Below are positions 11,396-51,409 of a DNA stretch of 64,000 nucleotides, one piece after another. The position numbers were made by a program, and so were the translations under genes. The notes below the pieces were generated by a model, which did not search any database, was not told the DNA's origin, and saw nothing but the letters and a program-made list of their open reading frames with translations. Source of the DNA: a virus; IMG/VR virus record IMGVR_UViG_3300025030_000045; one strand, 5' to 3'. The stretch's first letter is position 1, and each line of letters begins with the position of its first letter.

Positions 11396-12247
11396 ATGGC
11401 CAAGAAAACCGATGCAGAAAAACTCGAAGCTCAACGCAAACTTAACGAGAAGCGGGAAGCCGAGAATCATGTGAGATATCTTGATGACCTTCGCCGCGCC
11501 TATATCAACGATCCCACGGTTCTTTATGTTGTTGGAAATCGTGTTCAACATGGTGCTATTTACGAATCCATTGTCGTCGCCGTTCTTGATGGTGGAAAGA
11601 TTCTTGAGCTTAAAGAGCGGATCAATCCCGGCCGAGATGACAAACCCGCCGCAGATGGTTTTATGCATCGTCTCATGTATGTTCCCTGGCACAGTGTTGA
11701 ACCGTATCGCACCCTTAATGAAAAGATGGCGATTCAAGAATTTCATGTCAAAGATGACATTTATGTCGAAGCAACATCTCGTTGCATTGACGGTATTGTC
11801 GGTATGCATTGGCATTTCGGGGTTGACTTTGATCCTGATTATCAGCGCGGTAACGTGTGGACCCTCGAAGATAAAGTTGCCCTCATTCACTCCATCTTCA
11901 ACAATATTGACATCGGTAAGTTTGTCTTCATCAAGTTGCCATACAAGGATAACTCCCACTCCTATGAAATTCTCGATGGAAAACAGCGCCTGACCGCACT
12001 GATCGAATTCATGGAAGGCCGATTCACCTATCGTGGTAAGACTTTCTTTGAACTTCATCCCTATGATCAGAATCACCTCGAGAACTATTCTGTTGCCGTT
12101 GGTCAGATTACCGGCGTTGTTACGGCCGAGCAGAAGTACCGTTACTTCCTCAAGCTCAACGTTTCCGGGCATGCACAGGACCCGAAGCACATCGCTTATG
12201 TCGAAGAACTTCATCGTAAGGCTCTTGAAGCAATCGGGAAGAAATAA
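11396..12247 (+). CDS. DUF262 (ParB-like/GmrS-type) domain protein
   Basis: PDYQRGNVW...LIHSI...EILDGKQRLTA...LN. Confidence 0.85.
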   Translation: MAKKTDAEKLEAQRKLNEKREAENHVRYLDDLRRAYINDPTVLYVVGNRVQHGAIYESIVVAVLDGGKILELKERINPGRDDKPAADGFMHRLMYVPWHSVEPYRTLNEKMAIQEFHVKDDIYVEATSRCIDGIVGMHWHFGVDFDPDYQRGNVWTLEDKVALIHSIFNNIDIGKFVFIKLPYKDNSHSYEILDGKQRLTALIEFMEGRFTYRGKTFFELHPYDQNHLENYSVAVGQITGVVTAEQKYRYFLKLNVSGHAQDPKHIAYVEELHRKALEAIGKK

Positions 12248-12885: not shown

Positions 12886-13088
12886 GTGGAAAAGAGAAAC
12901 GAATCATTGATCTGTCGGGACCGGAGGGTAATGTGTTTTTCCTTTTCGGTATTGCCAAGCAACTCGCTGAGAAAACCGGGAAGAACGGCGACGATATCGT
13001 CAGGCGGATGAAGCAAGGAAATTATCGCAATGCAGTTGCTGTATTCAAGGAGGAGTTCGGCGATCACGTTGAACTTATCAACGAATGA
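12882..13088 (+). CDS. Conserved small phage protein
   Basis: IIDLSGPEGNVFFL motif. Confidence 0.65.
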   Translation: MSGKEKRIIDLSGPEGNVFFLFGIAKQLAEKTGKNGDDIVRRMKQGNYRNAVAVFKEEFGDHVELINE

Positions 13089-13861
13089 AGAATGAAAAAT
13101 TAAAAGGTCTCCGGGTCATCACAAATTTGCACTGTAACTATAACTGCTCCATGTGCTACCAGGTTGACAAGTCACGGAAGATTTTGACAACATGGACACT
13201 TGACGACGCTATTGCCGCCTATCCGAATAAGCACTTTGAATATGCGACAATCATGGGTGGAGAATCAACACTTCTTCCGGACCTCATCGATTACATTCGC
13301 ATAGCAGCAGCGAAATCTAAAGCAACGCGCCTGACGACGAACGGTTCGCTCCTCACCGATGCTGATATGCAGCAATTCAAGAAATACGGTCTAACCGGCC
13401 TCAATATTTCAATTCCGTCATTCCGTCATTATCATCCACTAACCGGTGGAGGGAGCCTCAAGCACGTCATTAGCAATCTTCTGATTGCCGCGGAAATCTT
13501 CGGTGATGAAAATGTCCGGGTCAACATTGCACTCTGTAAGGAAAATGTCGAGGGGCCCAACCCCGAGCTAAAAGAGCTGCTTGCCTGGTTTGTTGGACTG
13601 ATGCATTTCAATGTCACATTATGCGAAGACATCCTCGGCACATATTCCTTTTACGGTAAGTTCGACGAGATCGGTTGTACCGTCGAAGAAGAAACGAATT
13701 ACGGTCTGATCCTTCTCAAATATGCCGGCCATCAGATCGGTTATTACACACATCGCAACTCGGCATATAATGACACCGATCTTGTCGTAACGCCGAACGG
13801 AACATTCACCAATTGGGACGGCTATTGCGAATCGGTTGGTCATAATGTCAGGAAGGATTAA
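13085..13861 (+). CDS. Radical SAM protein
   Basis: CNYNCSMC, GGE, TTNG. Confidence 0.85.
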   Translation: MKNEKLKGLRVITNLHCNYNCSMCYQVDKSRKILTTWTLDDAIAAYPNKHFEYATIMGGESTLLPDLIDYIRIAAAKSKATRLTTNGSLLTDADMQQFKKYGLTGLNISIPSFRHYHPLTGGGSLKHVISNLLIAAEIFGDENVRVNIALCKENVEGPNPELKELLAWFVGLMHFNVTLCEDILGTYSFYGKFDEIGCTVEEETNYGLILLKYAGHQIGYYTHRNSAYNDTDLVVTPNGTFTNWDGYCESVGHNVRKD

Positions 13862-21062: not shown

Positions 21063-21533
21063 TTGAAAATCACCGACTTCTTTACAAATGAACATTCTCA
21101 GTTTTCACAGTATGATCTTTATCGGTCAGTTGCTTGTTATGTAGATGGCCTAAAACCTTCCTCCAGAAAGGTGATCCATACGGTACTGCGGAACAATATT
21201 ACTTCACCGATTAAAGTCAGCCAGTTGATGTCTAAGGTTGCTGAATGTCTACACCCAGATACGCTGATTAACATTGAAGGCGAACTTATAACCGTCAAAG
21301 AATTGATTGGTAAAAATTTTGATATTCAATCATTTAATGAAAACTCTAAACAGTGGGAATTAGATGAATGTTTGGATGTATTTGTTACCAAACAGAGCGA
21401 CGAATTTATTGAGATCGAGTTGGTGAACGGTGAAACATTCAAGGTGACGCCGAATCATCCGATAAGAACGATTTCTGGTTGGAAGCGGGCCGATGCTCTT
21501 ACAGCGGACGATGAAATAGTTTCGTTAGTGTAA
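21063..21533 (+). CDS. Topoisomerase II gp52 N-extein (61 aa) fused to the N-half of a split intein (95 aa)
   Basis: DGLKPSSRK...KVSQL...AE then CLHPDT (block A, nt 21246) and VTPNHP (block B), then a stop. Confidence 0.92.
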   Translation: MKITDFFTNEHSQFSQYDLYRSVACYVDGLKPSSRKVIHTVLRNNITSPIKVSQLMSKVAECLHPDTLINIEGELITVKELIGKNFDIQSFNENSKQWELDECLDVFVTKQSDEFIEIELVNGETFKVTPNHPIRTISGWKRADALTADDEIVSLV

Positions 21534-21544
21534 TTTACGATTTT

Positions 21545-21592
21545 TCACCATGAAGATATAAATACCTTTAAACGGAGGTATCTTCATGGTGA
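21545..21592 (+). promoter_or_regulatory. Start-codon-sequestering hairpin with embedded late promoter
   Basis: Perfect 14-bp IR TCACCATGAAGATA/TATCTTCATGGTGA; TATAAATA at 21557. Confidence 0.8.
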
Positions 21593-22371
21593 TACAAGAT
21601 AAACCACATTCGTATTTAATTACACATTTACAGACAGGCGATCGTTATGTTGGAATAGTATTAAAAAGAGGGAAGACATTATTTGACAGATTTGAAGAAC
21701 ATATGACGAGAAGAGGCGCCCTTGGTTTTATTCCTTATCTTGAAGATGGTTTTTCGAATGACGATTTTTCCATATCTCTAATCAGTTATTATGATTCTAG
21801 GTATGAGGCTGGTAAAGATGAAACGAGATTAATCAAATCGTTAAAACCAGAAATTAATAACAACTGTGGTGGTAGTTATGACTGGGTGCACTACAAACTT
21901 CGCGGTTTTTGTTGGTTATCTTTTAGCGGACTTCGCCGCAAAATAAACAGCACACCAATTCAACGTAGAATAGATTCTTTATCTTTTACTCAATACGAGA
22001 ATGATTTTGATTATGATGGTCGTCATAACCGTGGTGGAGAATATGTAATTCTGTTAAACAGATTCGGTAGGGACCACACAAAAATTTTAAGTAATGATAA
22101 TTGGAAGAATGGTAGAAAAAAATATAAACAAAGAATGAACAAAAAAGAATTTACTGATGCTGAAAAATTGTCATATAGTAAAAGAGATGCAATGGTTAAG
22201 AATATATGGGAAGGCCGCGACGAAACCACCAGAAAAACAATAGCAGCGAATGGTTTATCAATAATGAATGCAAAAATTTGGGCCTGTGAACATTGTGGGT
22301 TCATAACAACAAAAGGTAACTACGGGAGATGGCATGGAGATAAATGCAAGCATAAAAATAAAGTCAATTAA
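21586..22371 (+). mobile_element. Free-standing homing endonuclease (GIY-YIG-like) between the intein halves
   Basis: SYLI...YVG...R..EH; C-terminal CEHC...RWHGDKC. Confidence 0.75.
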
Positions 22372-23611
22372 AAGAATAAAGTTAGAAAAACCAATTGACG
22401 TATATGATCTTCATGTGAAGAAAAATCATAATTTTCCTATTGGTAAATCTGGAATTTGTGTTCACAATTGCACACAATACTTACACGGTGAGCAGAGTCT
22501 CGGTGGCGTCATCTGTGGATTGGCCCAAGATTTCGTCGGAACGAATAACATTACGCTGATGATTCCCGATGGAACGTTCGGCTCTCGTTTGAAACCGGCC
22601 CCGTCTGCAACTCGTTACATCTTCACCTACAAGGCTCCTGTCTTTAATCAAATTTTCAATAAGGATGACATCCCGCTTCTCACCGAGCAGGTTTTCGAGG
22701 GAGATGTCATTGAGCCGAGATTCTTTGTTCCGACCTTGCCACTCATTCTCATCAACGGCTCAGAAGGTATCGGTTCTGGTTGGTCACAGAAGATTCTTCC
22801 TCGCGATTCTAAGGAGGTTACCAAACACATTCGTAATTATCTGAAGAATGGAAAATTGCCACAACGGATTGCTCCTTATTATAAGGGCTTTAACGGTGTG
22901 ATTGAATACGAAGCAGAGAAGAACCGTTGGTTGATTAAAGGTGACTTTGAGAAAGTCAATCGGACCACACTTCGTATTACAGAACTACCGATCGGATATG
23001 ACCTCGATAAGTATGTCAAAGTGTTGACAGAACTTGAAGAGAAAAAGGTCATCCGGGATTTTGATGACCTTTCTAATCCAGGAAATAGTAAGTTTGAATT
23101 CATCGTTAAGGTTACAAGCGAATTCATTGATCGTGATAAAGAGATCGTGCTCAATGATCTCAAACTCATCAAACGAGTAACAGAGAACTTCACATGTCTT
23201 GACGAGAACAACATGGTCCGCGAGTTCAAGTCTGATATTGAGATTCTTGAAGACTATTGCAAAATTCGTCTTCGGTATTATCAGCTCCGTAAAGACTCAA
23301 TTCTTGATAAACTTACGAATCAGATTACAGTTGCCCAAGCAAAGTATCAATTCATCGGTGACGTTCTTGATAAGGCGATCATCCTCGAACGCCGCAGGAA
23401 AGACGAAATCATTACACAGATCCAAGCTCGGGGATATGACGAGGTAGAAGGATCATACGCTTATCTCATCAACATGCCACTGCACTCTCTATCAGAAGAT
23501 ACGATGTCTGAATTAAAGAAAAAGTGGCTTGAGCATTCTGAAGAATATAAAGTAGTTGCCGATACGTCTCCTGGTCAATTCTGGGAAGACGATCTCAAGG
23601 AAATAAAATGA
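22334..23611 (+). CDS. Split intein C-half (45 aa) fused to topoisomerase II gp52 C-extein
   Basis: VYDLHV..NHNF...VHN/C then YLHGEQSL, FGSR, catalytic TRYIFT and LINGSEGIG. Confidence 0.92.
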   Translation: MEINASIKIKSIKRIKLEKPIDVYDLHVKKNHNFPIGKSGICVHNCTQYLHGEQSLGGVICGLAQDFVGTNNITLMIPDGTFGSRLKPAPSATRYIFTYKAPVFNQIFNKDDIPLLTEQVFEGDVIEPRFFVPTLPLILINGSEGIGSGWSQKILPRDSKEVTKHIRNYLKNGKLPQRIAPYYKGFNGVIEYEAEKNRWLIKGDFEKVNRTTLRITELPIGYDLDKYVKVLTELEEKKVIRDFDDLSNPGNSKFEFIVKVTSEFIDRDKEIVLNDLKLIKRVTENFTCLDENNMVREFKSDIEILEDYCKIRLRYYQLRKDSILDKLTNQITVAQAKYQFIGDVLDKAIILERRRKDEIITQIQARGYDEVEGSYAYLINMPLHSLSEDTMSELKKKWLEHSEEYKVVADTSPGQFWEDDLKEIK

Positions 23612-24120: not shown

Positions 24121-24182
24121 TTTCCATTGACATTGTCTCGCTGATTTGTTAAAATAGACGAATCAAATGACGGAGAATCTTT

Positions 24183-25504: not shown

Positions 25505-26467
25505 ATGGACATGTTCAATATGGCAAAGCAAAATCGTATTCTTGAAATTCAGGTTGGTTCACGTCTCTACGGAACGTCGAATGATGATCCGACCAAAGGC
25601 AAGTTGTCTGACACGGATTACTCTGGTGTGTTCGTAGCCGATCTCTCTTGTTACATTGGATTTAACCATGTAGAGGAGGTTGACTTTTCGAAGATCAGTA
25701 AACTCGAGAATGGTCAGAACGCCCCAGATGCAATTGATAAGAAGTTGTATGAAGTGAAGAAGTTCCTTCGTTTGGCGATGGATAACAACCCAAACATCAT
25801 TGAGCATGTTTTCGTCAATGAAAAGAACATTGTCTATTCAAATCATTGGGGCAAAGAGATTCTTCGTTATGCAAAATTATTTCCGCATAAAGGATGTTTT
25901 GAGAAATTCATCGGTTATGCAACCTCACAGAAGCACAAGATGATTATCAAACGTGATAACATGGAGTTCATTGAGGCGGCAATCGAGTTCTTTTCTAAAC
26001 AAGACCCCAAATCTCTAATGGCAGAACACAAACAAATGTTCGGTTTGTGTAAGTTTAAATTCAACAACAACCATGTTACGATTGGCGACATGGCGATTCA
26101 ATTGAACATCAATGTCAAGCGGGCATTGGAACAATTGAATGAACGTAAAGACAAATTTGGTAGTCGCCATGAGCTCGTATCAAAGCATGGTTACGATACG
26201 AAATTTGCATCGCATCTTATTCGTTTATTGAAGGAAGGAGAAGACCTTCTCAAGTATGGTGAATTGACGTTCCCACTGCCACAGGCCGAGCTTATTCTTG
26301 ACATCAAGCAGGGTAAATACTCTGTAGAAGAAGTTATGCATATGGCAACAATGACCGAGGATGACATGCGATGCGCGCTGAACGAATCAAAGCTACCAAG
26401 TGGTCCTCGTGTATGGAACATCGAACAATTATTGCTTCAGATCATTCGTGGACATCATAATTTTTAA
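25505..26467 (+). CDS. Pol-beta-superfamily nucleotidyltransferase (RlaP-like)
   Basis: GSRLYGT...SDTDYSGVF, NPNIIE, YDTKFASHLIRL. Confidence 0.85.
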   Translation: MDMFNMAKQNRILEIQVGSRLYGTSNDDPTKGKLSDTDYSGVFVADLSCYIGFNHVEEVDFSKISKLENGQNAPDAIDKKLYEVKKFLRLAMDNNPNIIEHVFVNEKNIVYSNHWGKEILRYAKLFPHKGCFEKFIGYATSQKHKMIIKRDNMEFIEAAIEFFSKQDPKSLMAEHKQMFGLCKFKFNNNHVTIGDMAIQLNINVKRALEQLNERKDKFGSRHELVSKHGYDTKFASHLIRLLKEGEDLLKYGELTFPLPQAELILDIKQGKYSVEEVMHMATMTEDDMRCALNESKLPSGPRVWNIEQLLLQIIRGHHNF

Positions 26468-26477
26468 GGAGGATTGT

Positions 26478-26729
26478 ATGATAACTATTATTTTTATCGT
26501 AAACGGTGTTGATGTCCACATTGAGGCCGACGGAAATCAACCGCTATCGGTAGCCAGGAACCTTGCTCTCACTGAGTCAAATAATACCGGGCGACCGATG
26601 GATGAATGGGAAGTTCATAATGACGAAGGTGTCTTACTTGATCCCTTGAAGACGCCAATTGAGCTTAACATACAAAACGCTGATAGATTATTTCTAAATC
26701 TCAGCGTCGGGTGCGGCGGACATAACTGA
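26478..26729 (+). CDS. Ubiquitin-like protein (DUF2604/BilA-like)
   Basis: IVNG...EA..NQPL...AL..SNNTGRP..EWE....G.LLD...LFLNL.VG.GG; AAGGAGG SD. Confidence 0.75.
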   Translation: MITIIFIVNGVDVHIEADGNQPLSVARNLALTESNNTGRPMDEWEVHNDEGVLLDPLKTPIELNIQNADRLFLNLSVGCGGHN

Positions 26730-26914
26730 TGCCAAAGATTAAATGCTCTGCTAATGATTGTTTACACCACAAACATGGTACGTGTTGGGTAACTGAAGAT
26801 ACCACTATTGATATTTCTCTAGACGATGGCCATGCGGTGTGCCTTGACTATTCTCCCGTCACAAACCGCGAGTATGTGTTAATCACCGGTAAAGAAAGGG
26901 AAACAACAAAATGA
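26729..26914 (+). CDS. Small Cys-rich protein (DUF1540-like)
   Basis: IKCSANDCLHH...C...C..Y. Confidence 0.55.
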   Translation: MPKIKCSANDCLHHKHGTCWVTEDTTIDISLDDGHAVCLDYSPVTNREYVLITGKERETTK

Positions 26915-27396
26915 AACCGAGCATTTACCTAGCAGGACCGATTACTGGGTTACATTATTCAGACTCTATTGGCTGGCGAGATCGTGCGGCCGCTGCCTTC
27001 AAAGATAGTGGTATCGTGTGTTTCTCGCCACTCCGGGCAAAGAGTTATCTACGACCGACAAACGGCGATCCCAACTTAATGCAAGATGTCATAAAGGATA
27101 CATATGAAGAACATGTTCTATCGTCACAGCGCGGAATCTTCGGTCGTGATTATCATGATGCAACGAAACGAGATCTTATTTTTGTTAACCTTCTTGGCGC
27201 CGATCGCATCAGCATAGGCACCGTCATGGAGATGGCATGGGCGTTTCAAGCAAATGTACCAATTGTGCTTGTCATGGAGAAGACCGGATATCCCCACGAA
27301 CACGCTATGCTCCGCGAGACTTCATATTTTCGTACAGATGATTTTGATGAGGGCGTTCATATTGCAAAAACAATTCTTCTACCAGTTCCGCATTAA
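26911..27396 (+). CDS. Nucleoside 2-deoxyribosyltransferase-like protein
   Basis: IYLAGPI...RD...D...SIGTVME. Confidence 0.8.
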   Translation: MKPSIYLAGPITGLHYSDSIGWRDRAAAAFKDSGIVCFSPLRAKSYLRPTNGDPNLMQDVIKDTYEEHVLSSQRGIFGRDYHDATKRDLIFVNLLGADRISIGTVMEMAWAFQANVPIVLVMEKTGYPHEHAMLRETSYFRTDDFDEGVHIAKTILLPVPH

Positions 27397-27470
27397 CTAT
27401 TGACATACATCATCATTTAGTTTAAAATAGCGGTCCAATCAATCAACCACAACTAAAAGGAGCAACACAA

Positions 27471-29180: not shown

Positions 29181-30029
29181 TTAGATTCGATTAATTTCCC
29201 ACCCCTCACAATTAGCGGTCGATGGATCTTTGAGTTTTCTTTTAAATTTTATGATTCCATGGCCCGCATGTCTAATCATGGTTGTGAATGGTAGTTTGTT
29301 TTCTAAACAGAATGCAGAAAGTTCGCCATGTAATTCAAATGTTTCTCCTGATGGCGATGTTAAAAGAAAGTCTCCCGCCTTTGGATTATTTTTGCCTTTA
29401 GCAAGGCCCTTAATCTTTCTTACTTCTGACATTTTTCTTTTATGTTCATCGCTTTTTGGTCTCTGCATTTTATCAATATGTTCTTTTGATCCAAACACGG
29501 CCCTGTTAGGATTTCTTGCCTGAATACGTATTGTTCTTATTTGTTTTTGTTTTGTTGTTCTTATTTGTTTTGGTGTTCTTGGTTTCTTTATTATAATTGA
29601 ATATCGTTTAATTTGGGCGAGTTTCATGTTTGCTTTGTGTTCTTCTGACCATATTCTTCCCTTATTACTTTTAGACACCTTAGAATATATTTCTGATTTC
29701 ATTGGGTGTTGGGAATTCGTATCTCCTCCATCCCCACCCATAGTCATATTATAACCACAACAATCAGGGAGTCCCAAATATGTGTGATATTTCTGAATAT
29801 AAAAACATTCCATTTCATTGAGCATTTCAACGGGACCTTCATAAAGTGTTTCATATATAAAGTTTTCTCTACCATGTTTTTGTATAGCACGATAAAAAAC
29901 TCTCGTTGGTGAATTTTTTAATGCATTTTGAAAATGACCCTCGATATATGAATCTATATCTTGTTTTGTTTTTCCGATATAAGATTTATTGTTTATCGTA
30001 CACGTTACTTTGTATATAAAACCGTTCAT
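29181..30029 (-). mobile_element. GIY-YIG (Seg-like) homing endonuclease with NUMOD3 repeats
   Basis: GFIY...YIGKT, GYNMTMGGDG, SEEHK; inserted antisense between gp44 and gp62 with its own TATAAATA. Confidence 0.88.
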
Positions 30030-40055: not shown

Positions 40056-40781
40056 ATGTCAACCAAAGATAGTCTCGGAGATCGTATGAAAGGCTTCTAT
40101 GAAGCCAGGTCAAAAACATATTTAGCTCGAAGAACACCGGTCATCCTGCGTCTTGATGGGAAAGCATTCCACACGTTCACTCGTGGTTGTGTGAAACCGT
40201 TTGATGAACGCCTACAAGGTGCAATGGAAGCGACTGCAAGATTTCTTTTAGAAAACATTCAAGGGGTCAAGTTGGCATACACCCAGTCTGACGAGATCAC
40301 CCTGCTGTTGACTGACTATGATCGTCTTGAGACAGACGCCTGGTTTGATTACAATGTGCAGAAGATGTGTTCGATTGCCGCGAGTATGGCGGGCGTTAAG
40401 TTCACGTTAGAGTATGCAGATGATGACACTCATTTGTGTGATGTCGACCCAGCATACTTTGATTGCCGCGCATTCAACATTCCGAAAGAAGAAGTCAGCA
40501 ACTGTTTTTATTGGCGGTGCCTTGACTGGGAACGGAATTCGGTTCAGATGTTGGCACAGGCTCACTATTCGGCTAAACAACTTCATGGCGTATCATGTGC
40601 AATGGCAAAGGACATGTTAATCTGTCAGAAGAATATCAATTGGAATGAATTGGCCGATAAGTGGAAGTATGGTTCATTCATTCAACGTGATGAATTCGGT
40701 GATGTATCAATATCATCGGTTAACCTCAAGAATGATCGTTCATGGATTGACGAACTCGTAAACAGAGGTGAATATGTTTAG
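40056..40781 (+). CDS. Thg1-like tRNAHis guanylyltransferase / 3'-5' polymerase
   Basis: LGDRMKGFYE, RLDGKAFHTF, YTQSDEI, FDCRAF, RNS. Confidence 0.92.
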   Translation: MSTKDSLGDRMKGFYEARSKTYLARRTPVILRLDGKAFHTFTRGCVKPFDERLQGAMEATARFLLENIQGVKLAYTQSDEITLLLTDYDRLETDAWFDYNVQKMCSIAASMAGVKFTLEYADDDTHLCDVDPAYFDCRAFNIPKEEVSNCFYWRCLDWERNSVQMLAQAHYSAKQLHGVSCAMAKDMLICQKNINWNELADKWKYGSFIQRDEFGDVSISSVNLKNDRSWIDELVNRGEYV

Positions 40782-41154
40782 TTGGTGGAAGAAAGAAAAG
40801 AAAGAGGTCGATGAAAAGCCGATCCAACAGAATCATATTGCCATCGTAATTGAGGAGCCGACGCTGTTGGAATTGGCAACCGTCGCCTCTCGTGCTTTTG
40901 AATTTCGACGTGGTGGCTTTACAATAAAACAAAGAGCAAAATCCCAACGCAATTCAGATGAAGCCTGTAAAAAATTCTTTGATGCATTTTATGCGGTCTA
41001 TCCTTGGCCCGGCTACATATATCTGCGCCGCCTTCATTATGGTCAGAAGGCAACATATGTGGCCATTGTCACTAGTGTTTTACCCGAGTCACCAATAAAA
41101 CATGATGGGCGATTGGCGCGTATTGAATGTATCAGCGATACTGAGATAAAATAA
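40768..41154 (+). CDS. Hypothetical protein
   Basis: GAGGTG SD. Confidence 0.5.
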   Translation: MNMFSWWKKEKKEVDEKPIQQNHIAIVIEEPTLLELATVASRAFEFRRGGFTIKQRAKSQRNSDEACKKFFDAFYAVYPWPGYIYLRRLHYGQKATYVAIVTSVLPESPIKHDGRLARIECISDTEIK

Positions 41155-41253
41155 ACTCTATCATTCCTGGTCTTTCCTCTGGATTCATCAAATTCTTTAA
41201 ACATAAATACTATCACAACAAATTTAAAGTCCTAACAGAGGAGGAATTAGAGA

Positions 41254-42666
41254 ATGTCTCTTTTTACACCAACGAATATCCAACCGCTTGATCCAACGAA
41301 AGAAAATGTCGTCTGCTTCATCAATAAGAATGCAGAGAATTTTAGGGATCATTGGGGATTTGCATTTCCGATCATCGATGCGCTGAAGGAAAAGTACAAC
41401 CTGCTTTTTGTTGTGCTCAATGATCGGACATTCCCAACTCTTTATCCTAACTGCTTTGTGTTTAACAACAAAGAGTTAACCCGCATCAATGAAACCGAAT
41501 TTAAGCGAGTAAAGGAATCAGACAATTCTCGTGATCATAATCAATCAATCCTAGAACGGGAGTTCGAACACTCGTTTGGGCAATTCAAAATTCACCGCAT
41601 CATTCTGCTCCAAGATTATATGTTTGCACTTCCGTTGATTCCGTATGTCCCCGCCAAAAAGCACCGAGAACTCCATGATATGCAAAACGAGTACTTTGAT
41701 TATGTTGGTGACGACAACGAACGAATGAATATCATTGATGAGACGAATGCATCAATCGTAGAAAACTTCAACGAACGTGTCAGCGTCATCGCATTCTCAA
41801 TGTGGGATAAGAACCTCTTTTCCAACCTTGTGTTGTGGATGTACAAGAAAAATAAAGAACACTTCAAGATGCTCTATACATCAATCATCGATCCCGGCAT
41901 CTTCTTCGCATTCTTTGAGATGAACGGAATTCCACTCACAAATTATTACTTCGTAGATGACAAACGTGGCACCCGTAATCTTTCGGCATTTCCTTTGGCT
42001 GAACTTCAACATCTTGTCTATGAAGAACCAATAAAGGATGATTTTGATTTCTTCGGAGCATCGCTACCAACTGAAATCGAAAAGGACAAAGATTTCATTT
42101 TCTTCGGTTCGATCTTTTATGAAAAGGGTCCACGTTTGACAATGTGGGACACCTTTCTTCGCGACCTTGATGCATCAAATGCCGAACTCTATATACCGCT
42201 CAAAGCAAACGGTGTGTACTACGGAAAACTTCAACAAGGTTGGCTGGACAAAGCAAAGACGATCGGTGGGCGTGTTTATGATGAAGTTGTCAATCATCCG
42301 TGTTATAAGGGTTACCTCCACCCAGATAATCTTTATGCACAGATTCAACGCTTTAAGTATTCGCTTATCCTACGATGCGTGTCGACATTTGATTCGTTGA
42401 ACTTCCGCCCCGTACTTTATGCCAAGTACAACATCCTTCCTTTCTTTGATGTTGGGTATGATCCTGAATATCTTCAGATTCCAAAGGAGATTCAAGATAA
42501 GCTTATCGTAAAGAATTCCGTTGACATTATGGCGAAAATGGATTATTATAACAGTCACGATGCCGAACGGCTCGCCCTCCTCAAATCCCTCCGCGATCAT
42601 TTCAATGTAGACTTTTGGCTCAATAGACAATGGAGTAATGATGACATCACAAAATACTATTCTTAA
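41254..42666 (+). CDS. Putative GT-B glycosyltransferase (BGT-like C-terminal domain)
   Basis: C-terminal FIFFGS...KYSLIL...LPFFD..YDP parallels 45993..47282. Confidence 0.5.
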   Translation: MSLFTPTNIQPLDPTKENVVCFINKNAENFRDHWGFAFPIIDALKEKYNLLFVVLNDRTFPTLYPNCFVFNNKELTRINETEFKRVKESDNSRDHNQSILEREFEHSFGQFKIHRIILLQDYMFALPLIPYVPAKKHRELHDMQNEYFDYVGDDNERMNIIDETNASIVENFNERVSVIAFSMWDKNLFSNLVLWMYKKNKEHFKMLYTSIIDPGIFFAFFEMNGIPLTNYYFVDDKRGTRNLSAFPLAELQHLVYEEPIKDDFDFFGASLPTEIEKDKDFIFFGSIFYEKGPRLTMWDTFLRDLDASNAELYIPLKANGVYYGKLQQGWLDKAKTIGGRVYDEVVNHPCYKGYLHPDNLYAQIQRFKYSLILRCVSTFDSLNFRPVLYAKYNILPFFDVGYDPEYLQIPKEIQDKLIVKNSVDIMAKMDYYNSHDAERLALLKSLRDHFNVDFWLNRQWSNDDITKYYS

Positions 42667-43288
42667 CCTCTGGGACTTTGACGGTACGCTTTTTGATACC
42701 GAACCAGCCCTCTATAAGGTATACAGTCAGGCCCTCCGAGAAGTCACCGGACATATACTTACACCCGAAGTGTGGCAAAGTATTTTTGGAAAAAGTGCAT
42801 ATGCACTTGAAGAACATTACGGCATCTCGCATGAAACGATGGTGAAGGTCCGTGATCGTAAATACGAACTCTATCCACACACACTGTACGATGGCATTTT
42901 CATGATCAATCATGTCAGGCAATTCTGGGATCACCCATTGGCGCTGAATTATGTTTGTACACATACCAATCCTGATGTTGCCGAGACGATACTCGATAAG
43001 TTCGAGATTCGCCCTTGGTTCAAACGTGTCTATGGGCTCAAGGATGTCGGTCATAAGGCAAAACCAGACCCCGCTATGTATCTCTTGGCGATGGGTGTTG
43101 GTATCATCGAGTCGCATGGAATTATCAAACACATAAATATTTTTGAAGATTCGGACTTTGGTCTGGGGGCTGCGGCGAATACGAAAAATGCATTTGATGA
43201 AGAACTCTACAAAGCATTTCCACCCGAGACTAAACTGACAATTTATAAAGTCACCAATGAAGGTATTAATGAATATGAAGCTCCTTAA
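42638..43288 (+). CDS. HAD-family phosphatase/mutase
   Basis: DFDGTL, KPDP, FEDS..G. Confidence 0.88.
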   Translation: MMTSQNTILNLWDFDGTLFDTEPALYKVYSQALREVTGHILTPEVWQSIFGKSAYALEEHYGISHETMVKVRDRKYELYPHTLYDGIFMINHVRQFWDHPLALNYVCTHTNPDVAETILDKFEIRPWFKRVYGLKDVGHKAKPDPAMYLLAMGVGIIESHGIIKHINIFEDSDFGLGAAANTKNAFDEELYKAFPPETKLTIYKVTNEGINEYEAP

Positions 43289-44249
43289 AGGCGGGTCAGC
43301 CTCATCCGTTTATTTAGATGAAATACATAATGAAATCCTTAAGACCGTTAGAGTTACCGACACTAACGGTTTTAATCATCTTCGTGACCAGCACTGCTGG
43401 ATGGCCTATCACAAAGAAGCCCTCCCTAACTATTTTCCGCATATAGGCGACGACTTCTTCAAAGATGGTCTGTATTGCTATCGGATGGAATTTGTTGAGG
43501 GTAAAACTCTCGACAAGATGCTTGATAATAAATTCATCGCAAGAAATTTACTTGAAGATGTAATGCACACCGTGGTGAGTATATCAGACATTGATTTCAT
43601 TCCAAAAGGAAACACGACATTCACGACATACATTGATCGACTCAAGGGTCACCTCCGCCGTCTGAAGAAAGAGACGATCTTTGTTGATATGTTGATGAAA
43701 AAAGAATTTATCCTCGTAGAGAACGGTGTTGAGAAAGTCATACCAAACATTGACTTTATTAAATTCATTTCTATGTTGACATCAATGACATCGTACATGG
43801 ACAAGCAGTACTCAAACTGCCACGGCGACCTCACTCTTGAAAACATAATCATAAACGAGTATGAAGATTTTGGCTGCAACCGCATCAAGTTCATTGATGA
43901 CAACTTTATCTTCAACGGGTGGAATTCATATCTGCTTGATTATTCAAAAATATTTCAAAGTCTTCATTTTAATTATGAAGAAACATTTTCTGATTCGTCG
44001 TCGTTAATCATTGACGATGGTAAATATTTGTTGACTTATAACACAGAAAATGTTAAAATTAAAGAATACTTATTTGGACATGGTTGTGGATTTTTTACCG
44101 ACGCCGTTCGTGATGCGTCACTCGTACTTGAGGTAACGCATTACATTCGTATGCTTATCTATAAACTCGCCATCAGTCAAAAGGATTTCATCGTTGCATA
44201 TATTCGCACCTGCCAAGCCTATCACGAATTAAAGAAAAGAGGATCATAA
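43275..44249 (+). CDS. APH/choline-kinase-family phosphotransferase
   Basis: LKGGS, MEF..G, HGDLTLENII, FID, D..KI.QS. Confidence 0.82.
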   Translation: MKLLKGGSASSVYLDEIHNEILKTVRVTDTNGFNHLRDQHCWMAYHKEALPNYFPHIGDDFFKDGLYCYRMEFVEGKTLDKMLDNKFIARNLLEDVMHTVVSISDIDFIPKGNTTFTTYIDRLKGHLRRLKKETIFVDMLMKKEFILVENGVEKVIPNIDFIKFISMLTSMTSYMDKQYSNCHGDLTLENIIINEYEDFGCNRIKFIDDNFIFNGWNSYLLDYSKIFQSLHFNYEETFSDSSSLIIDDGKYLLTYNTENVKIKEYLFGHGCGFFTDAVRDASLVLEVTHYIRMLIYKLAISQKDFIVAYIRTCQAYHELKKRGS

Positions 44250-45152
44250 ATGGAAGATATCAAATATCTAATGTTATCACCAACAAGCAGGTGCAACCTT
44301 GCTTGTGAGAAGTGTAACAGAAAAGGTTCGGGAACCGATTTCCCCTGGGATGATTACAAGGCCATTATTTTTTCATCCTTCCCCAACTTGAATTTTGCAA
44401 AACTTCAAGGAATGGGCGAACCATTCATGGCCAAGGACCTCGGTCGGATGGCAAAAGAACTTAAGGATCATTATCCAGGAATCAAGACTCTCACAATCAC
44501 CAACGGAACTCTTAATTACAATGCTCCGGCATTTGATGATGTCTATAAGAATCTTGATATGCTTTATGTCTCGATTGATTCTGTGAACAATATCAGCGAA
44601 ACGATCGGCGCTCATGCCGTTCTTGCAACGCTTTTTGAGAAGTCAAAGGAGTTTGGGTTCCAACTATATGTCAACACTATTCTTTTTCCGTGGAACCTCA
44701 AGTGCATTGCCGATGTGAAGAGGCTTGTTCAAGAGTATCCTGGTGTGAAGATGCGTGTCCAACATCAACAATGTTGGAATGATGTATCAAACATCGAATC
44801 AGTGGACATCGAAGTCTTCAATAAATTCGTTGCACCGTTGTTTGATGATGTTATGGAATACATCGGCCGTGATGATTTTTATTATACCGAATGTGATTGG
44901 AATACTAAGCGGATTCAGATTGACGAGCTCGGTAACATCCGTCTCTGTTGTCTGAAAACTGATAACTCTATCATCGGTCAAATCACCGATCTTGGACTAT
45001 ATAAAGCTGTTGCTGAACGGATCAAAGCAAGAATATCTGTTGATGCGTGGCCGATGGTGATTCGTCCACATTTTGGTCTTTGTGAGACATGCACATTCGT
45101 TCAGCTGAACCCAATTAACAAACAGATCTTGAAGATTTTGGAGGAAAGATGA
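44250..45152 (+). CDS. Radical SAM protein with SPASM/Twitch-like C-terminus
   Basis: CNLACEKC, GMGEP, TNG, C...G...CC...CETC. Confidence 0.85.
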   Translation: MEDIKYLMLSPTSRCNLACEKCNRKGSGTDFPWDDYKAIIFSSFPNLNFAKLQGMGEPFMAKDLGRMAKELKDHYPGIKTLTITNGTLNYNAPAFDDVYKNLDMLYVSIDSVNNISETIGAHAVLATLFEKSKEFGFQLYVNTILFPWNLKCIADVKRLVQEYPGVKMRVQHQQCWNDVSNIESVDIEVFNKFVAPLFDDVMEYIGRDDFYYTECDWNTKRIQIDELGNIRLCCLKTDNSIIGQITDLGLYKAVAERIKARISVDAWPMVIRPHFGLCETCTFVQLNPINKQILKILEER

Positions 45153-45856
45153 TTCCAAAGGCTGCTCTTATTCTTGCGGCGGGCGCGTCAACCCGCTTCG
45201 GAAAAAATAAACTTCTTACTAAGATCGGCGACAGAACTCTTCCACAGCAATGTGTTGAGTTTGCGATCAATAACGGTATGGATGACGTCTATGTCACGAT
45301 CAGTAAAAGAGATTTCTTTTTCCTCAACGATCATAAGACATTGACACATCCAATAATCGAATCATTGTCTCCATATGATTGCCTTATTAACCTTCACTAC
45401 CAATTCCAGAATGAAGAGGAGAAGGGGCCGGGAGCCGCTATCAAGGTTTGGCAAGGTATCATAAATAAACCTTTCGTTTGTCTGTTCGGTGATAACTATT
45501 ATTCGGGTTCTCTTCCTTACATGGATTTCAATGAATATGATTGCTTTGTGAGTTATCGTGAACTTGAAAAGAATTCGCGGAACTTACAACTTGCATATCT
45601 TGACGGTAACATCGTCATCGAGAAGCCCCATGCATTCACCGAAGGAAAGTTCTTCTGCGGCTATACGGCATTCAGCGAAAAGGTGTTTGACCAACTCAAT
45701 AACTGCCTCATATCTGGACGCGGCGAATATGAAATCACTGATCTGATTAACTTTATGGATCGGAGATGTTTCCTTTTCAATAGTCTCGTGTGGGGTGACA
45801 TTACTTTTGCTGGAGATGAAGCAAAAATCGTTGATATGATTGGAGGAAAGAAATGA
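45149..45856 (+). CDS. Sugar-phosphate nucleotidyltransferase (RmlA-like)
   Basis: LAAGASTRF..NK, LFGDN, EKP, SGRGEYEITD. Confidence 0.85.
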   Translation: MIPKAALILAAGASTRFGKNKLLTKIGDRTLPQQCVEFAINNGMDDVYVTISKRDFFFLNDHKTLTHPIIESLSPYDCLINLHYQFQNEEEKGPGAAIKVWQGIINKPFVCLFGDNYYSGSLPYMDFNEYDCFVSYRELEKNSRNLQLAYLDGNIVIEKPHAFTEGKFFCGYTAFSEKVFDQLNNCLISGRGEYEITDLINFMDRRCFLFNSLVWGDITFAGDEAKIVDMIGGKK

Positions 45857-45992
45857 ATTTTTGGCAATTTTTAAATCTGAGACCTGTACTATCATTCTTT
45901 ATTATTTTTATCTTTTGTGCAACCATTATTGATGTCGTGCATTCACTTTCTACGAAAACAGTAGAATGCAAGCATGGATGGGTGGTGCCCAA

Positions 45993-47282
45993 GTGAAAGT
46001 TGGATATGGGAAAATAGGCAAGAGCATTCTTTTTAATGAATCGCTGTGGGCAGCGATCGGCGGAGACTGTGAGGCGCCGGCCGTCATCACCTCTGTTGCT
46101 CGCTATAACCCCGATGACACTTTCTATCTGATCGGTAAGTCTGACTTCTCTCGATTGTCAGATGCTAAACGAAAAGAGGTTGCACCGAATAACAACATCA
46201 TTGATGTTTGGGGTGATTTCCGCCGTGGAGATAATGTCACTGACTTTGTCGTCAATTGGTTTGAGAAGAATAATGTCAAACTTGACACCGCATTCTTTTA
46301 TGGTGGCCCAGCCGGTAATGCAAACATGCCTGATAAGATCAAGACGGTAAAGGGAGATCGGATTGCTAAGGTTCTTGAGTGCTTTGAGAACTATGTCGGT
46401 CCTATCGCTCACTATCTGAACGTATCTGGGATTGACTATTTTACTCTAACGCCGGACCCGCGATATCATCCTATTCGTGCACGAGACCTCTACAATATCT
46501 CGAAGTTTGCACTGTCTCAATTCAATTCAAAGGACATGCAAGTCAAGCATATCGTCAACTATGAGGATCAGTCATATCTGTTCTCTAAGGTGCCGACATT
46601 CTATACCGCGCTTGAAACGGTGTTCCTCATTGATAAAAAGAAACCCGACCTTCTTGAACTTGCCAAACATAAAAAGAAGAAGTTCATGGTGGTGTTGAAT
46701 GAGGGCGGCAACGGTGGATTGAGCCGCGGTCCTGAGCTTAAGCGCTGGGTACTCAATCACCTTGAGGACGTTGACATTTACGGTAAGTGGTCTGACGAGT
46801 GGATGAAGGATACTCGATTCAAAGGATCGGTGAAATTCCAAACTCTTCAGGATATGTTGCCTGATGTTAAATACACCTTCATCATACCGATTCAGCGTGG
46901 TTGGGCAACGATGAAGTTCTGGGAAGTATTACAATATGGCATCATTCCGTTTATGCATCCTTGGTACGACGAGCAGATGAATCTTGATGTTCCAGAATTC
47001 ATTCGTGTGGAAACTCCCGAAGAACTATTTGAAAAAATTGAGTTTTTGGAGAACAACCCGGCTGAATACACCGCCCTTCTCGAGAAACTTAACCAAGTTC
47101 TCAAGAATAAATATTACACCGGTGAACATATCAACAACCTCATCATGAAGTCGTGCTACAGGGTTGCCGGAAAAGATGCCAGTTTATATGAATTAACCTC
47201 CGAGAAAATGTTGCAGATTGATTCTGGTCTATCGGTGAAGATGAAAGCCGAAGGAACCGATCTGTCTGACTTCTTCTCCTAA
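45993..47282 (+). CDS. Phage glycosyltransferase (putative DNA-modifying, BGT-like)
   Basis: DPRY, IYGKW, KYT..IP...T.KFWE...G.IPF.HP.YD; C-terminal LSDFFS. Confidence 0.65.
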   Translation: MKVGYGKIGKSILFNESLWAAIGGDCEAPAVITSVARYNPDDTFYLIGKSDFSRLSDAKRKEVAPNNNIIDVWGDFRRGDNVTDFVVNWFEKNNVKLDTAFFYGGPAGNANMPDKIKTVKGDRIAKVLECFENYVGPIAHYLNVSGIDYFTLTPDPRYHPIRARDLYNISKFALSQFNSKDMQVKHIVNYEDQSYLFSKVPTFYTALETVFLIDKKKPDLLELAKHKKKKFMVVLNEGGNGGLSRGPELKRWVLNHLEDVDIYGKWSDEWMKDTRFKGSVKFQTLQDMLPDVKYTFIIPIQRGWATMKFWEVLQYGIIPFMHPWYDEQMNLDVPEFIRVETPEELFEKIEFLENNPAEYTALLEKLNQVLKNKYYTGEHINNLIMKSCYRVAGKDASLYELTSEKMLQIDSGLSVKMKAEGTDLSDFFS

Positions 47283-47905
47283 TGAAAGGATGCTCAATGT
47301 CAAAAATTTTTACAGATGCATATGGCCAGGAAATTTCGATTGGTGATCTCATTTTCCATTCACCAAGAACAAAATACGGCCGGGCACGTATTGGTGTTGT
47401 CATTAGTACTAATATGCACGGTGTACGATATGTTAAAGCCAACGTAATTCAAGAACCGGGCTTACCCGACAACTTTAGTATTTCTTCTTGTAAGAGATCA
47501 CGTAACTGTATTGTGATGAAATTCGACAGTATTTCAAATCAGAACAGCAAAGAGATGACAACACTTGCTGGGTTAGTTGAACATGCTGTTGGGTTGATTA
47601 ACAAAAGAGAAAAGTTCAATCACAAAGACCAACTCGGACAAGACATTAATGTCGGTGACTTCGTTGTTTATGGGGCGAGTGCTTTTGGTGGTGGAGCGGT
47701 GACCCGTTGTGGCATCGTTACAAAGCTTAACCAAACATCCATTACTTACTTGACGATGATGCTCAAGTGGACCGGAAGAGAGTATAAAAATAAACCCAAA
47801 CTCACCTGTGCTTTTGCCCCCGGGCAAGCCGTCATCATCAAGAATAAAGAGTATGACACCCCAGAATTAAGGGCCCTCAAGGAGGCATTCAAAAATGTCA
47901 AGTAA
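47282..47905 (+). CDS. Hypothetical protein with two SH3/KOW-like repeats
   Basis: DAYGQEISIGD and DQLGQDINVGD. Confidence 0.55.
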   Translation: MKGCSMSKIFTDAYGQEISIGDLIFHSPRTKYGRARIGVVISTNMHGVRYVKANVIQEPGLPDNFSISSCKRSRNCIVMKFDSISNQNSKEMTTLAGLVEHAVGLINKREKFNHKDQLGQDINVGDFVVYGASAFGGGAVTRCGIVTKLNQTSITYLTMMLKWTGREYKNKPKLTCAFAPGQAVIIKNKEYDTPELRALKEAFKNVK

Positions 47906-49142
47906 AAAGAAGAATATCAAATGGGCGTCGATCATCCCTCTCGCCGGCGGTATGTCAATCGGTATGGAACAGGCAATCGGTCACAAACCAGAATTCATCA
48001 TTAGCTTCCCGGGTTTCCAGGCTAATGATGCTCACCTTCGTAACTATTGGCCGGATGTCCCTTATCATATCATCGACGAGAACTTCGACAAGGGTGCGGT
48101 ATTCAAACCGGGCAGTATTGACATCGTAAACTCCGTGTGTCCCTGTGCAGGACTTTCGATGTTGAACACAGGTGGCAACAAAAATTCTGGTAAAGCTCGT
48201 GGATCAGATGCCGTCCAAAATCAGCATATGTACAATTCATCTCGCTATGTTCTTGAGCATATCCAACCGAAAGTTCTGTTCGGTGAAAACGCCCCGGGAC
48301 TTATCACCAAGATCGGTGAAGGCGTTCAGGCTGAACTCTACAAGATTGCTGAAGAATTCGGTTATTCATTCTCGATTGTCAAGACGAGCACCAAGTATCA
48401 TGGCATTCCCCAGAATCGTATTCGTACATTCTTCTTTTTCTGGAAAGCGGACTCTGCACCGATCCTCAATTACTACGATCGCACGAAAGAGACCAAGAAC
48501 ATCGTTGATTATCTCAAGGACATCCCTGCAGATGCTTCTTATCAGGACACCAATGATGTCCTTCGTGAAAAGATGTTCAAGAACTACACCTTCCTATTCA
48601 TGCGGGACAAGTACGGCGCCGACAATTGGCGAGAAGTCATGTGGAAAGAGAACAGCAAAACAGTCTGGGCTCATGTCTGTAAGAACAATCTCGTCGAAGA
48701 ACTGAAGGAATTCTCCTACAAGATCAATGACCGTCGTGGTATCAAAGAGACCGAACATGCGATCAAAAAGTTTGCTGCTGGACTCGGTATCTGGGATGGT
48801 TCTGTTCATCTGTTCAAAGACGAGATCAATGCTGTCGTCGGTCGTAACATGGCTGACTCTATTCACCCGACAGAAGATCGTTATATGAATGCCCGTGAAT
48901 ATCTCCACCTCATGGGACACCCTCATGACTATGAACTCACTGACATCAAGTGGCAACACCACCTCACACAAAATGTCCCCACCTGCACATCAAGAGATTG
49001 GACATATGAGGTTATTAAATTTATCGAAGGTAAACTTCCTTTCTCTGGTGTCAGGGACCTTCGTCAGGATAACATCAAGCAGTGCATCAACACAAAAGGT
49101 GTCAATGTCGAGAACGAGTTCTCATCTGACTTTTTTGCTTAA
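47895..49142 (+). CDS. C5-cytosine DNA methyltransferase
   Basis: PLAGG (motif I variant), CPCAGLS (IV), ENAPG (VI), PQNRIR (VIII), QNVP (X). Confidence 0.85.
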   Translation: MSSKKKNIKWASIIPLAGGMSIGMEQAIGHKPEFIISFPGFQANDAHLRNYWPDVPYHIIDENFDKGAVFKPGSIDIVNSVCPCAGLSMLNTGGNKNSGKARGSDAVQNQHMYNSSRYVLEHIQPKVLFGENAPGLITKIGEGVQAELYKIAEEFGYSFSIVKTSTKYHGIPQNRIRTFFFFWKADSAPILNYYDRTKETKNIVDYLKDIPADASYQDTNDVLREKMFKNYTFLFMRDKYGADNWREVMWKENSKTVWAHVCKNNLVEELKEFSYKINDRRGIKETEHAIKKFAAGLGIWDGSVHLFKDEINAVVGRNMADSIHPTEDRYMNAREYLHLMGHPHDYELTDIKWQHHLTQNVPTCTSRDWTYEVIKFIEGKLPFSGVRDLRQDNIKQCINTKGVNVENEFSSDFFA

Positions 49143-49443
49143 ATCAAAATCGGCGATGGTCTATGATTAGACCATCGCCGAGAAAGATGTAACATTATGT
49201 TTAAACGCGGAACAATGATAATAAAATGCAAATTTGGTCTAACATGTTCAATCAAGAGATCATCTGATGGGAAGTGGGCACATGATGGAGAAACTGTTAG
49301 ATTTTTCAAGATCATTCCTTATAGCAAAGGGAAACCGCCCCACGATAATAAATGGATAGCAGGTCTGATCTGTTGGGAAATAGCAATTATGATTGCGGGT
49401 TATACTAAAGACTAAATGTTTATCAATGAAAGCGAGGTAATGC

Positions 49444-49719
49444 ATGGATATCGAGCATGAATTTGTTGATGTTATGAAAGTACCACGTCTTAAGCGGCGC
49501 CATCACCGCGATCGCTTGAAACGTAAACGGCGCTATCATTGGGGACACGACAGAGATCTGTCTCTTGAACCAGAGATACTTGCAAGGGCGGTCAATACAC
49601 CAACACCCTGTTCTTGTTGGATGTGTCGTAATAATCGTGAAAAGACTCGTAAGGAACGTGAATCGGAACTACTTCTTATTGAAGGACTTGAACTATTAAA
49701 GGATGGTGACAACGAATGA
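49444..49719 (+). CDS. Small basic protein
   Basis: TPTPCSCWMCRN; GAGGT SD. Confidence 0.6.
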   Translation: MDIEHEFVDVMKVPRLKRRHHRDRLKRKRRYHWGHDRDLSLEPEILARAVNTPTPCSCWMCRNNREKTRKERESELLLIEGLELLKDGDNE

Positions 49720-49857
49720 CTCTAAGACAATTGATTAAAAGATCGACACAACGGAGAAATGATGTTAACAATTTCAGACTCTTCGGAAATAACATACGTG
49801 AGGCAAAAGAAATCATTTTAGATTTCATTAAACTAATCAAACGGAGGATGAAAAAGA

Positions 49858-50544
49858 ATGAACAGAATAAAGGTTAATCTGATAGCGCATTCTGACCCAA
49901 CGGCTGTCATCAATGCAATGGGCAAGCCGTATAAAAATGAAAAGGTCACAACGGAACTCATCAAGAGAATCTGTCTCGGTGAGAAGCTTGCAGAACGACA
50001 TGGTTCTGTTCTTGAACATATTACTCTAACATGGGAGGTTCTCGGTTCATCTCGTCTTGAACTCCAAGAACACATGCGACACCGCATTGCATCTCCGACC
50101 GTCGAGAGCACTCGTTATGTTCTTGATAAGATGATGCTGCAGTATGAAAATCGCGGTTGGGCATTTGCTCCGGTCAAAGATTACTTCGTGTTTCCTGACC
50201 TATCAAACACCGATTGGTCAGACGAGAAGAAGGCTAAGTTCGATGAGATGTATGCCGAGAAGTGTCGGGCTAATCTCGACAGCATTTATGCTTTCTTCAA
50301 AACATTTTACACCACGAAGAAAGATAACGACACGATCAAGTATGTCCTTCCTGAAAACCTCCGGACGAACTTCACATTTACTTTGAATTTTAGATCATTT
50401 ATCAACTTCATTCGGCTGCGCAACTCTTCAGCCGCACACTTTGAAATACGATACATAGCCAGATTGATGTTAGAAGAACTTAAACAGACATGGTTGTGGG
50501 AATTGATCGAAGATCAGTTTGACGAGGATCTTTGTCCCAAATAA
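49858..50544 (+). CDS. thyX: Flavin-dependent thymidylate synthase
   Basis: HGSVLEH, RHR-x7-STRY, N.RS..NF..LR, AHFEIR. Confidence 0.92.
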   Translation: MNRIKVNLIAHSDPTAVINAMGKPYKNEKVTTELIKRICLGEKLAERHGSVLEHITLTWEVLGSSRLELQEHMRHRIASPTVESTRYVLDKMMLQYENRGWAFAPVKDYFVFPDLSNTDWSDEKKAKFDEMYAEKCRANLDSIYAFFKTFYTTKKDNDTIKYVLPENLRTNFTFTLNFRSFINFIRLRNSSAAHFEIRYIARLMLEELKQTWLWELIEDQFDEDLCPK

Positions 50545-51409
50545 ACCACCCGACTGTGTTATGACCTTCCTGACTAATTCGAGTTGCTTTATCTGACAGA
50601 GAAATTTTACCTTTGTTTAAATTTGATTTTAGCATGGTCATAGATAGATTATTATTTTTCACAAAATCAGAAAAGCCATAGTGTACTATATGAAATTCTG
50701 AATTCGGGTCTATTAGATACCATGTTTTCTTTTTACCCGAATTCATTTTCATTTTATCACGACATTCCCCGGTTCTCTTTTTACCTTTGTTCGCGGCAGC
50801 AAGTTTCATTTTTGTTTCATCTGTATGATGTTTGCCGCTCATTGGGTTGTTGATTAACATCCTATTTCGCATATCATCAATTGCTCGCGGGTTCTCGTTT
50901 AGAAATTTCTTTCTACTGTCCGATTGTTTTATTTTTGTTTCTAAACTTCGGTGTTGGCCTCGACGTTTTTCAGCGGCAACTTTCCATGACTGTTTGTCAC
51001 GTAATGCGGTGGTACACTTGATTCTCTTAATGATGTCGTCTCTATTTGGATGATTGCTGATTGTGTCTCCACCATCGCCACCTTCGGTTATATTGAGGAG
51101 AGGACCATTATCACAAATTCTTCCTATATGTAATATCATAAATTTTTCATACTCTAGTGCAAGCTTTGATGAATTTCTATTTAATATGACCACATATGAA
51201 AGTGGGTCATATTTTTCTTTTATAATTTTCTTTATTTTTGCACGTTTCTTTGAATTTGGAAAACTGTCTACATATAGCGTATGATGTTTCCATCTGTTTG
51301 CCGTACCTTTACCAACGTAAAATGGTTCGAATAAAAATGACACATCAAGGCCATCATAATCGAATTTTCCCGGGCGTCTTGGGTCCACATAAACATAATT
51401 GTAATTCAT
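50480..51409 (-). mobile_element. GIY-YIG-like homing endonuclease with NUMOD3 repeats
   Basis: YVYVDPR...PFYVGKG...R...L.N.T.GGDGG; H(T/S).ETK repeats; converges on and overlaps the thyX end. Confidence 0.8.

Follow-up and report, generated by a model that had tools for sequence, protein, structure and literature searches.

A gene of a T4-like myovirus encodes a genuine member of the BilA family of bacterial ubiquitin-like proteins (Ubl), of Type II, and is an orphan within the roughly half of the phage genome that was covered; the family is known, the setting, a phage, is new. The gene was found in a stretch of 64,000 nucleotides (IMG/VR virus record IMGVR_UViG_3300025030_000045), hereafter called the window, and the features discussed are collected in Table 1. 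The ORF starts with ATG, ends with TGA and encodes 83 amino acids, the last of which are ...RLFLNLSVGCGG-HN. Direct reading confirmed the ORF, the strong Shine-Dalgarno sequence and the C-terminus as they had been described in the initial annotation, which was made from the sequence alone. Judged by its Pfam match and its homologues (59 with E < 1e-9 among 5.8 billion proteins), the ORF is not a chance frame. The RlaP-type gene upstream has homologues in approximately 1000 phage records that do not have the Ubl. The 61-aa ORFan downstream matched only itself among the 5.8 billion proteins, and its Pfam matches to zinc-binding domains were all below threshold.

Table 1. Positions of the Ubl gene, its neighbours and other features (window coordinates unless a contig is named)
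Feature	Position	Strand	Evidence
BilA-type ubiquitin-like gene, orphan; 83 aa, one beta-grasp, GCGG-HN end	26478..26729	+	ORF, Pfam, PDB, AF2/Foldseek
Shine-Dalgarno AAGGAGG, ATG 5 nt downstream	26466..26472	+	read from sequence
Codons of Gly80-Gly81 (family-invariant conjugation end) and His-Asn cap	26715..26726	+	alignment with 22 homologues
RlaP-type nucleotidyltransferase, upstream neighbour; context, no shown partner	25505..26467	+	Pfam RlaP 2.2e-15; phrog_388 3.6e-57
61-aa Cys/His-rich ORFan, downstream of Ubl	26729..26914	+	overlaps both neighbours (TGATG with the Ubl stop, ATGA)
Nucleoside 2-deoxyribosyltransferase-like gene that closes the unit; context	26911..27396	+	PF05014 3.4e-07, 30.8 bits vs cut-off 28.8
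Near-consensus sigma-70-type promoter, head of the 8-gene unit with Ubl	24127..24155	+	TTGACA-17-TAAAAT, upstream TG, 11/12 matches
Next promoter of this type, upstream of the sliding-clamp gene; sets the downstream boundary of the unit	27400..27428	+	pattern match
14 promoter sites (473-54599)	473, 2386, 3696, 11339, 14827, 17984, 19949, 24127, 27400, 31454, 34532, 38683, 51476, 54571	+	exact match
Homing endonuclease genes, window	29181-30029, 50480-51409	-	
Homing endonuclease genes, neighbouring contigs	L028:66-908, L028:3165-3890, L030:8373-9140		

The assignment to the BilA family was obtained from sequence and from structure. Residues 2-81 match PF10790 (DUF2604) with an E-value of 3.5e-18 (66.2 bits, gathering score 25), thus the DUF2604 resemblance, which the initial annotation had put forward, is real. 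A profile made of the phage Ubl and 21 homologues matches the Ubl (BilA) of Ensifer aridi, whose structure is solved (8TYX/8TYY, 8TYZ/8TZ0), with an E-value of approximately 1e-25, and it also matches the three-domain BilA of Methylobacterium brachiatum. The AlphaFold2 model (pLDDT 91.6, pTM 0.80) has a beta-grasp fold, as the initial annotation would lead one to expect, and its top Foldseek matches are the BilA chains 8tyz_B and 8tyx_A (TM 0.86-0.90, 41% identity), with SUMO and ubiquitin next. Because both the profile and the structural matches lead to solved BilA, DUF2604 can be equated with the Type II BilA family; Chambers et al. renamed the CEHH/6C operons Type II BilABCD (PMC10557695). 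According to the same work, all BilA proteins share a conserved C-terminal Gly, behind which stand 0-9 residues that are not conserved. The phage Ubl, with its conserved Gly and the HN that follows it, satisfies this rule, and in the alignment of 22 homologues G80 and G81 are invariant. PHROGs and PADLOC gave no match for the protein.

Compared with the Type II BilA of E. aridi (PMC10557695), the phage protein has the same domain (DUF2604), the same single beta-grasp architecture and the same arrangement of a conserved C-terminal Gly and, behind it, a short cap that can be removed. It differs in being encoded by a phage without BilB, BilC and BilD, in having one lysine instead of about six, in having Ser at the position equivalent to Lys92, and in lacking the Lys-rich N-terminal extension. 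The Type I BilA of Collimonas sp. OK412 is likewise a ubiquitin-like tag ending in Gly, and its operon encodes E1, E2 and JAB; Type I BilA proteins, however, consist of two fused beta-grasp domains and form a separate sequence group (PMC10557695), whereas the phage Ubl is a one-domain molecule that groups with Type II. The link to Bil systems proposed in the initial annotation stands therefore for the BilA family but has to be modified for the type: it is Type II, of CEHH/6C operons, and not Type I, for which the tagging of tail fibres was shown. The Type I system of Collimonas sp. OK412 tags the central tail fibre; for no other Bil system has an antiphage mechanism been shown (10.1101/2023.09.04.556158). 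For Type II Bil an antiphage role has not been demonstrated, and its biological role and targets are stated to be unknown (PMC11601603).

The closest relatives of the phage Ubl are bacterial proteins with 65-70% identity, and they are encoded in operons that also contain genes of a JAB peptidase, a Y4jH-like (CEHH) E2 and a Prok-E2_C/ThiF (BilD) E1. This four-gene arrangement with DUF2604 was seen in every bacterial locus that had enough flanking sequence. Named genomes with such loci belong to Alphaproteobacteria, Nitrospirota, Gallionella, Burkholderiales, Sulfuricaulis, Terriglobia and Planctomycetota, and related Bil operons were found in MAGs of several phyla including Gallionella and in a metagenome contig (L033). 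Such a patchy distribution is as expected for a mobile defence system. Two further observations concern the bacterial loci. In six close-clade Type II Bil operons (L001, L002, L003, L004, L005 and L031) the E1 gene is followed by the same convergent pair on the opposite strand, an AAA_15/AAA_21 ATPase (~460-495 aa) and an unannotated protein (~200-310 aa), which may be a linked second defence module. In two MAG contigs (L001:8264-8925 and L002:8902-10422, the latter = L020) BilB or BilD is split into two or three overlapping frames, either by decay of the operon or by assembly error.

None of the Bil enzymes accompanies the phage gene. To look for them we built HMMs from 8-9 bacterial sequences each for BilC, BilB and BilD, and searched 1546 six-frame ORFs, among which the Ubl HMM, used as positive control, recovered the Ubl gene at 6e-38. 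In approximately 86 kb of the ~170-kb genome no BilB (CEHH-type E2, Y4jH-like) was found with Pfam and the HMM from nine bacterial BilB sequences; the best HMM E-value was 0.98 for BilC (JAB/JAMM peptidase) and 0.43 for BilD (BilD_N/Prok-E2_C/ThiF E1), thus neither is present in these ~86 kb of phage loci. The ThiF, JAB and E2 families are absent from the precomputed Pfam annotation (window -13.8 kb to +17 kb, 16.5-36.7 kb and 52-72.5 kb), direct Pfam scans of the 34-53 kb interval (20 ORFs, each 110 aa or longer) detected no Bil enzyme family, and tblastn for E1, E2 and JAB found none across the window and the flanking loci. The claim that there is no E1, E2 or JAB gene nearby holds by each of these approaches, including the Pfam annotation of the 10 kb on either side of the gene. 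For the genome as a whole, where the initial annotation had suggested a check, it holds over the ~86 kb covered. An indirect whole-genome test gave the same picture: genes of this phage are recognised by a contig signature (occurrence on 17-24 contigs, the longest 170,495 bp), and none of the best 120 BilD E1 homologues (at least 44% identity) in the 5.8-billion-protein collection has this signature. The orphan status of the Ubl gene is thus well supported but not complete, direct reading having covered ~86 kb of ~170 kb.

The phage copy has kept most of what is conserved in the bacterial proteins: it agrees with them in 35 of 39 columns whose conservation is 90% or more, among them the NNTGRP-DEWE surface motif and the invariant Gly80-Gly81. 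What it has lost are lysines. It contains a single one (Lys58) versus a mean of 6.1 in close homologues (n=58), and the lysine content of the phage's own proteins averages 8.4% with a minimum of 4.3% (65 ORFs). The lysine columns 24, 29, 59 and 76 are Ser, Leu, Thr and Ser in the phage Ubl, and the Lys-rich N-terminal extension of the close relatives is missing. Ser76 aligns with E. aridi Lys92, the mapped site of the BilA-on-BilA isopeptide bond. In the sequence comparison the lysine loss is striking within the close clade, but alone it does not point to a non-canonical role: of 204 representatives of the wider family, 38 have at most one lysine, at least one of them in a full operon. As complete operons contain lysine-poor BilA proteins, the idea that lysine depletion proves non-function was rejected.

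The initial annotation had also proposed that the Cys before the Gly-Gly and the HN extension could make the protein a trap. We found no support for this suggestion. Cys79 is unique to this copy, it does not occur in the other phage copies, and it occupies a tolerant position, which aligns with Val95 of E. aridi, where the V95K replacement did not disrupt conjugation. The two-residue HN cap is normal for a family whose members extend 0-9 residues beyond the conserved Gly; the JAB protease cuts E. aridi BilA after Gly97, the equivalent of this Gly (PMC10557695).

The window is part of a T4-like myovirus with replication genes for a sliding clamp, a clamp loader and a B-family polymerase; the structural genes of the phage include the T4 neck proteins gp13, gp14 and gp15, tail sheath, tail tube and terminase. 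The identical Ubl occurs on at least 22 groundwater-metagenome contigs, the longest of which is 170,495 bp. The phage is distant from all cultured phages (~30% identity in the sliding clamp), which makes a comparison of synteny with cultured relatives impossible. All contigs of this phage are identical in the Ubl region, thus the population is clonal and offers no variation from which selection within it could be judged.

Some other features of this genome deserve mention. The gene of the topoisomerase II large subunit (window 21063-23611) is broken up: the first piece, of 156 aa, has an intein N-half at its end (Pfam Intein_splicing), it is followed by a free-standing 261-aa ORF, and then by a 425-aa piece that has an intein C-half-like start (...VHNC) and continues with the DNA_topoisoIV domain. 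From its sequence, this resembles a split intein into which an endonuclease gene has been inserted. There are many free-standing homing endonuclease genes of the GIY-YIG/NUMOD3 and HNH types, one of them between clamp-loader genes. Genes of nucleic-acid-modification type are dense in window 11396-12247, 13085-13861 and 40056-50544 and in L028/L030 upstream of the window. They include several radical SAM genes, a GmrSD_N-like, a Thg1-like guanylyltransferase and two glycosyltransferase-like genes, as well as genes of a HAD hydrolase, an NTP transferase, a C5 cytosine methylase and ThyX, a set that may represent a DNA hypermodification pathway.

The Ubl gene belongs to a group of eight co-directional genes bracketed by two promoters of the same type (Table 1). 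Exact matches to TTGACA-N16-18-TANAAT occur 14 times in the window, all on the + strand, versus 0.31 expected by chance. In T4 near-consensus sigma-70 promoters drive the early genes. By analogy, the 14 sites are probably the early promoters of this phage, and they could serve to map its early transcription units. Since the unit that contains the Ubl gene is headed by such a promoter, as in T4, the gene is likely to be transcribed early in infection.

What could an orphan BilA do in a phage? We propose, tentatively and with a confidence that falls a little short of an even chance, that it interferes competitively with the Type II Bil system of the host. A Type II BilA would have been captured from bacteria by a virulent T4-like phage, which did not keep the E1, E2 and DUB. 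The phage Ubl, made early, would compete with the host BilA for the putative Type II Bil enzymes of the host. With its conserved core, surface motifs and Gly-Gly tail all kept, it is predicted to fit the adenylation site of BilD and the protease BilC. The retention of the tail and of these surfaces argues that the protein still meets E1, E2 or DUB enzymes, and as the phage appears to encode none, such enzymes would be those of the host. Inhibition could take two routes. The uncleaved GG-HN precursor might occupy the E1 adenylation site unproductively; in the complex with the E. aridi E1, ATP binding is blocked when a residue remains uncleaved behind the Gly (PMC10557695), which is a precedent for inhibition by a precursor. 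Alternatively, the processed phage Ubl would use up the thioester capacity of E1 and E2, and, with hardly any lysine left and no Lys-rich extension at its N-terminus, it would itself accept further Ubl units poorly. The analysis shows the identity and fold of the protein, its orphan status over about half of the genome, the lysine loss and the recurrence in other phages; that it binds host enzymes, is expressed early and inhibits Bil in some way is what we infer from these features.

The phage Ubl is not a solitary case. Three further orphan copies were found on unrelated phage-like contigs, L016, L017 and L037, and no Bil enzymes were found on these contigs. P0006, which has one lysine, lies on the 9.3-kb contig L016 with several PHROG matches; P0053, also with one lysine, lies on the 2.4-kb contig L017 between ORFs matching phrog_14808 (9e-32) and phrog_36680 (2e-20). 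Besides the Ubl, L016 and L017 have no gene in common with the T4-like phage. Both copies have the Asn18-to-Asp and Lys59-to-Ser changes and no N-terminal extension. In all three small phage copies (these two and that of the window, P0001) residue 18 is Asp versus Asn in 95% of the bacterial copies, and position 59 is Ser or Thr versus Lys in 93%. The tree joins P0001 and P0006 as sisters (98/96) and places P0053 elsewhere on a long branch. A constraint tree uniting the three was not rejected (p-AU 0.354), thus independent capture of the small copies is not established, and from the sequences their shared changes could be either convergent or inherited. Searches of other collections gave no further examples: among 50,697 records of cultured phages there was no match by megablast with the region or by tblastn with the protein, there was no phage BilA-like protein in BFVD, INPHARED or GenBank phages, and scans of IMG/VR with patterns from the protein and the family alignment detected no relative (a 30-mer from the same phage was also absent there). 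It is possible, although we consider it rather doubtful, that phage-borne BilA proteins constitute a recurrent class of anti-Bil inhibitors characterised by few lysines, the Asn18-to-Asp change, the missing N-terminal extension and the kept GG.

The diverged phage copies bear on the question whether the gene has a Bil-related function at all. It could be a passenger gene, or encode a beta-grasp protein with a role outside Bil, for example an adaptor; the early regions of T4-like phages are rich in dispensable small genes, and the clonality of the population would agree with a passenger. However, the three small copies, although only 54-65% identical to one another, all keep the GG tail and 32-35 of the 39 family-conserved positions, which argues for continued selection on the surfaces facing E1, E2 and DUB. 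The G+C content of the Ubl gene (44.0%) is also near that of the phage (41.5%), which speaks against a passenger. On this evidence we regard such a role as unlikely.

A conjugation-competent GG end would fit use as a tag as well as a decoy. The Bil E1 and E2 of the host could load the phage Ubl and attach it to host or phage proteins to the benefit of the phage, for example by turning Bil on competing phages or host factors. For such use the GG end and the conserved surfaces are intact, and the cap, being of normal length, should be removable by the JAB protease. The copy on the phage contig L037 (L037:5971-6537, also present on L036) points in the same direction: its DUF2604 domain (8e-16) ends in GAGG and continues with ~100 more residues containing Cys pairs, a fusion that implies processing by a DUB. 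To judge from its sequence, this protein, whose gene adjoins a Peptidase_M50-like gene, may be a Ubl-fusion precursor whose release depends on a DUB. Nevertheless, we think it unlikely that the phage uses its Ubl as a tag: neither a target nor a benefit can be named, Bil would have to be present in the host and is sparsely distributed, and the lysine loss would be unnecessary for this role. That the phage has activating and conjugating enzymes of its own elsewhere in its genome, or uses enzymes unrelated to Bil, appears very improbable, for although the direct search covered ~86 kb of ~170 kb, the partners adjoin the Ubl gene in every bacterial locus with enough flank whereas the phage neighbours are unrelated, no E1 among the best 120 homologues (at least 44% identity) shows the contig signature of the phage, and L016, L017 and L037 also lack the enzymes. 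Competitive interference with the host Type II Bil remains the reading that we prefer.

There is a parallel in eukaryotic viruses that have captured ubiquitin. Baculoviruses (v-ubi), pestiviruses (as inserts) and giant viruses carry a conjugatable host tag without the full enzyme set, as this phage does, and v-ubi was proposed to interfere with chain building in the host. The difference is that the viral ubiquitins are true ubiquitin and belong to viruses of eukaryotes. They are the nearest folds to the phage Ubl among viral proteins (BFVD), with 12-23% identity. In a full-text search of the literature we found no description of a phage-encoded BilA and no phage countermeasure to Bil; the sole anti-Bil idea was a speculation on tail assembly proteins that contain DUB domains.

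Tagging with ubiquitin-like proteins has recently been recognised as a bacterial defence, and the presence of a conjugation-ready, enzyme-less and lysine-stripped copy of the tag in a phage ties Type II Bil directly to phage infection. The phage Ubl is also a ready-made 83-aa reagent to probe Bil conjugation or defence. In fusions such as that of L037, if they are what they may be, cleavage by the host BilC might free a phage effector only in hosts that carry Bil. A recurrent class of phage BilA proteins, if true, would be the first evidence of phage counter-selection on Type II Bil, and would thereby imply that Type II Bil is an antiphage system.
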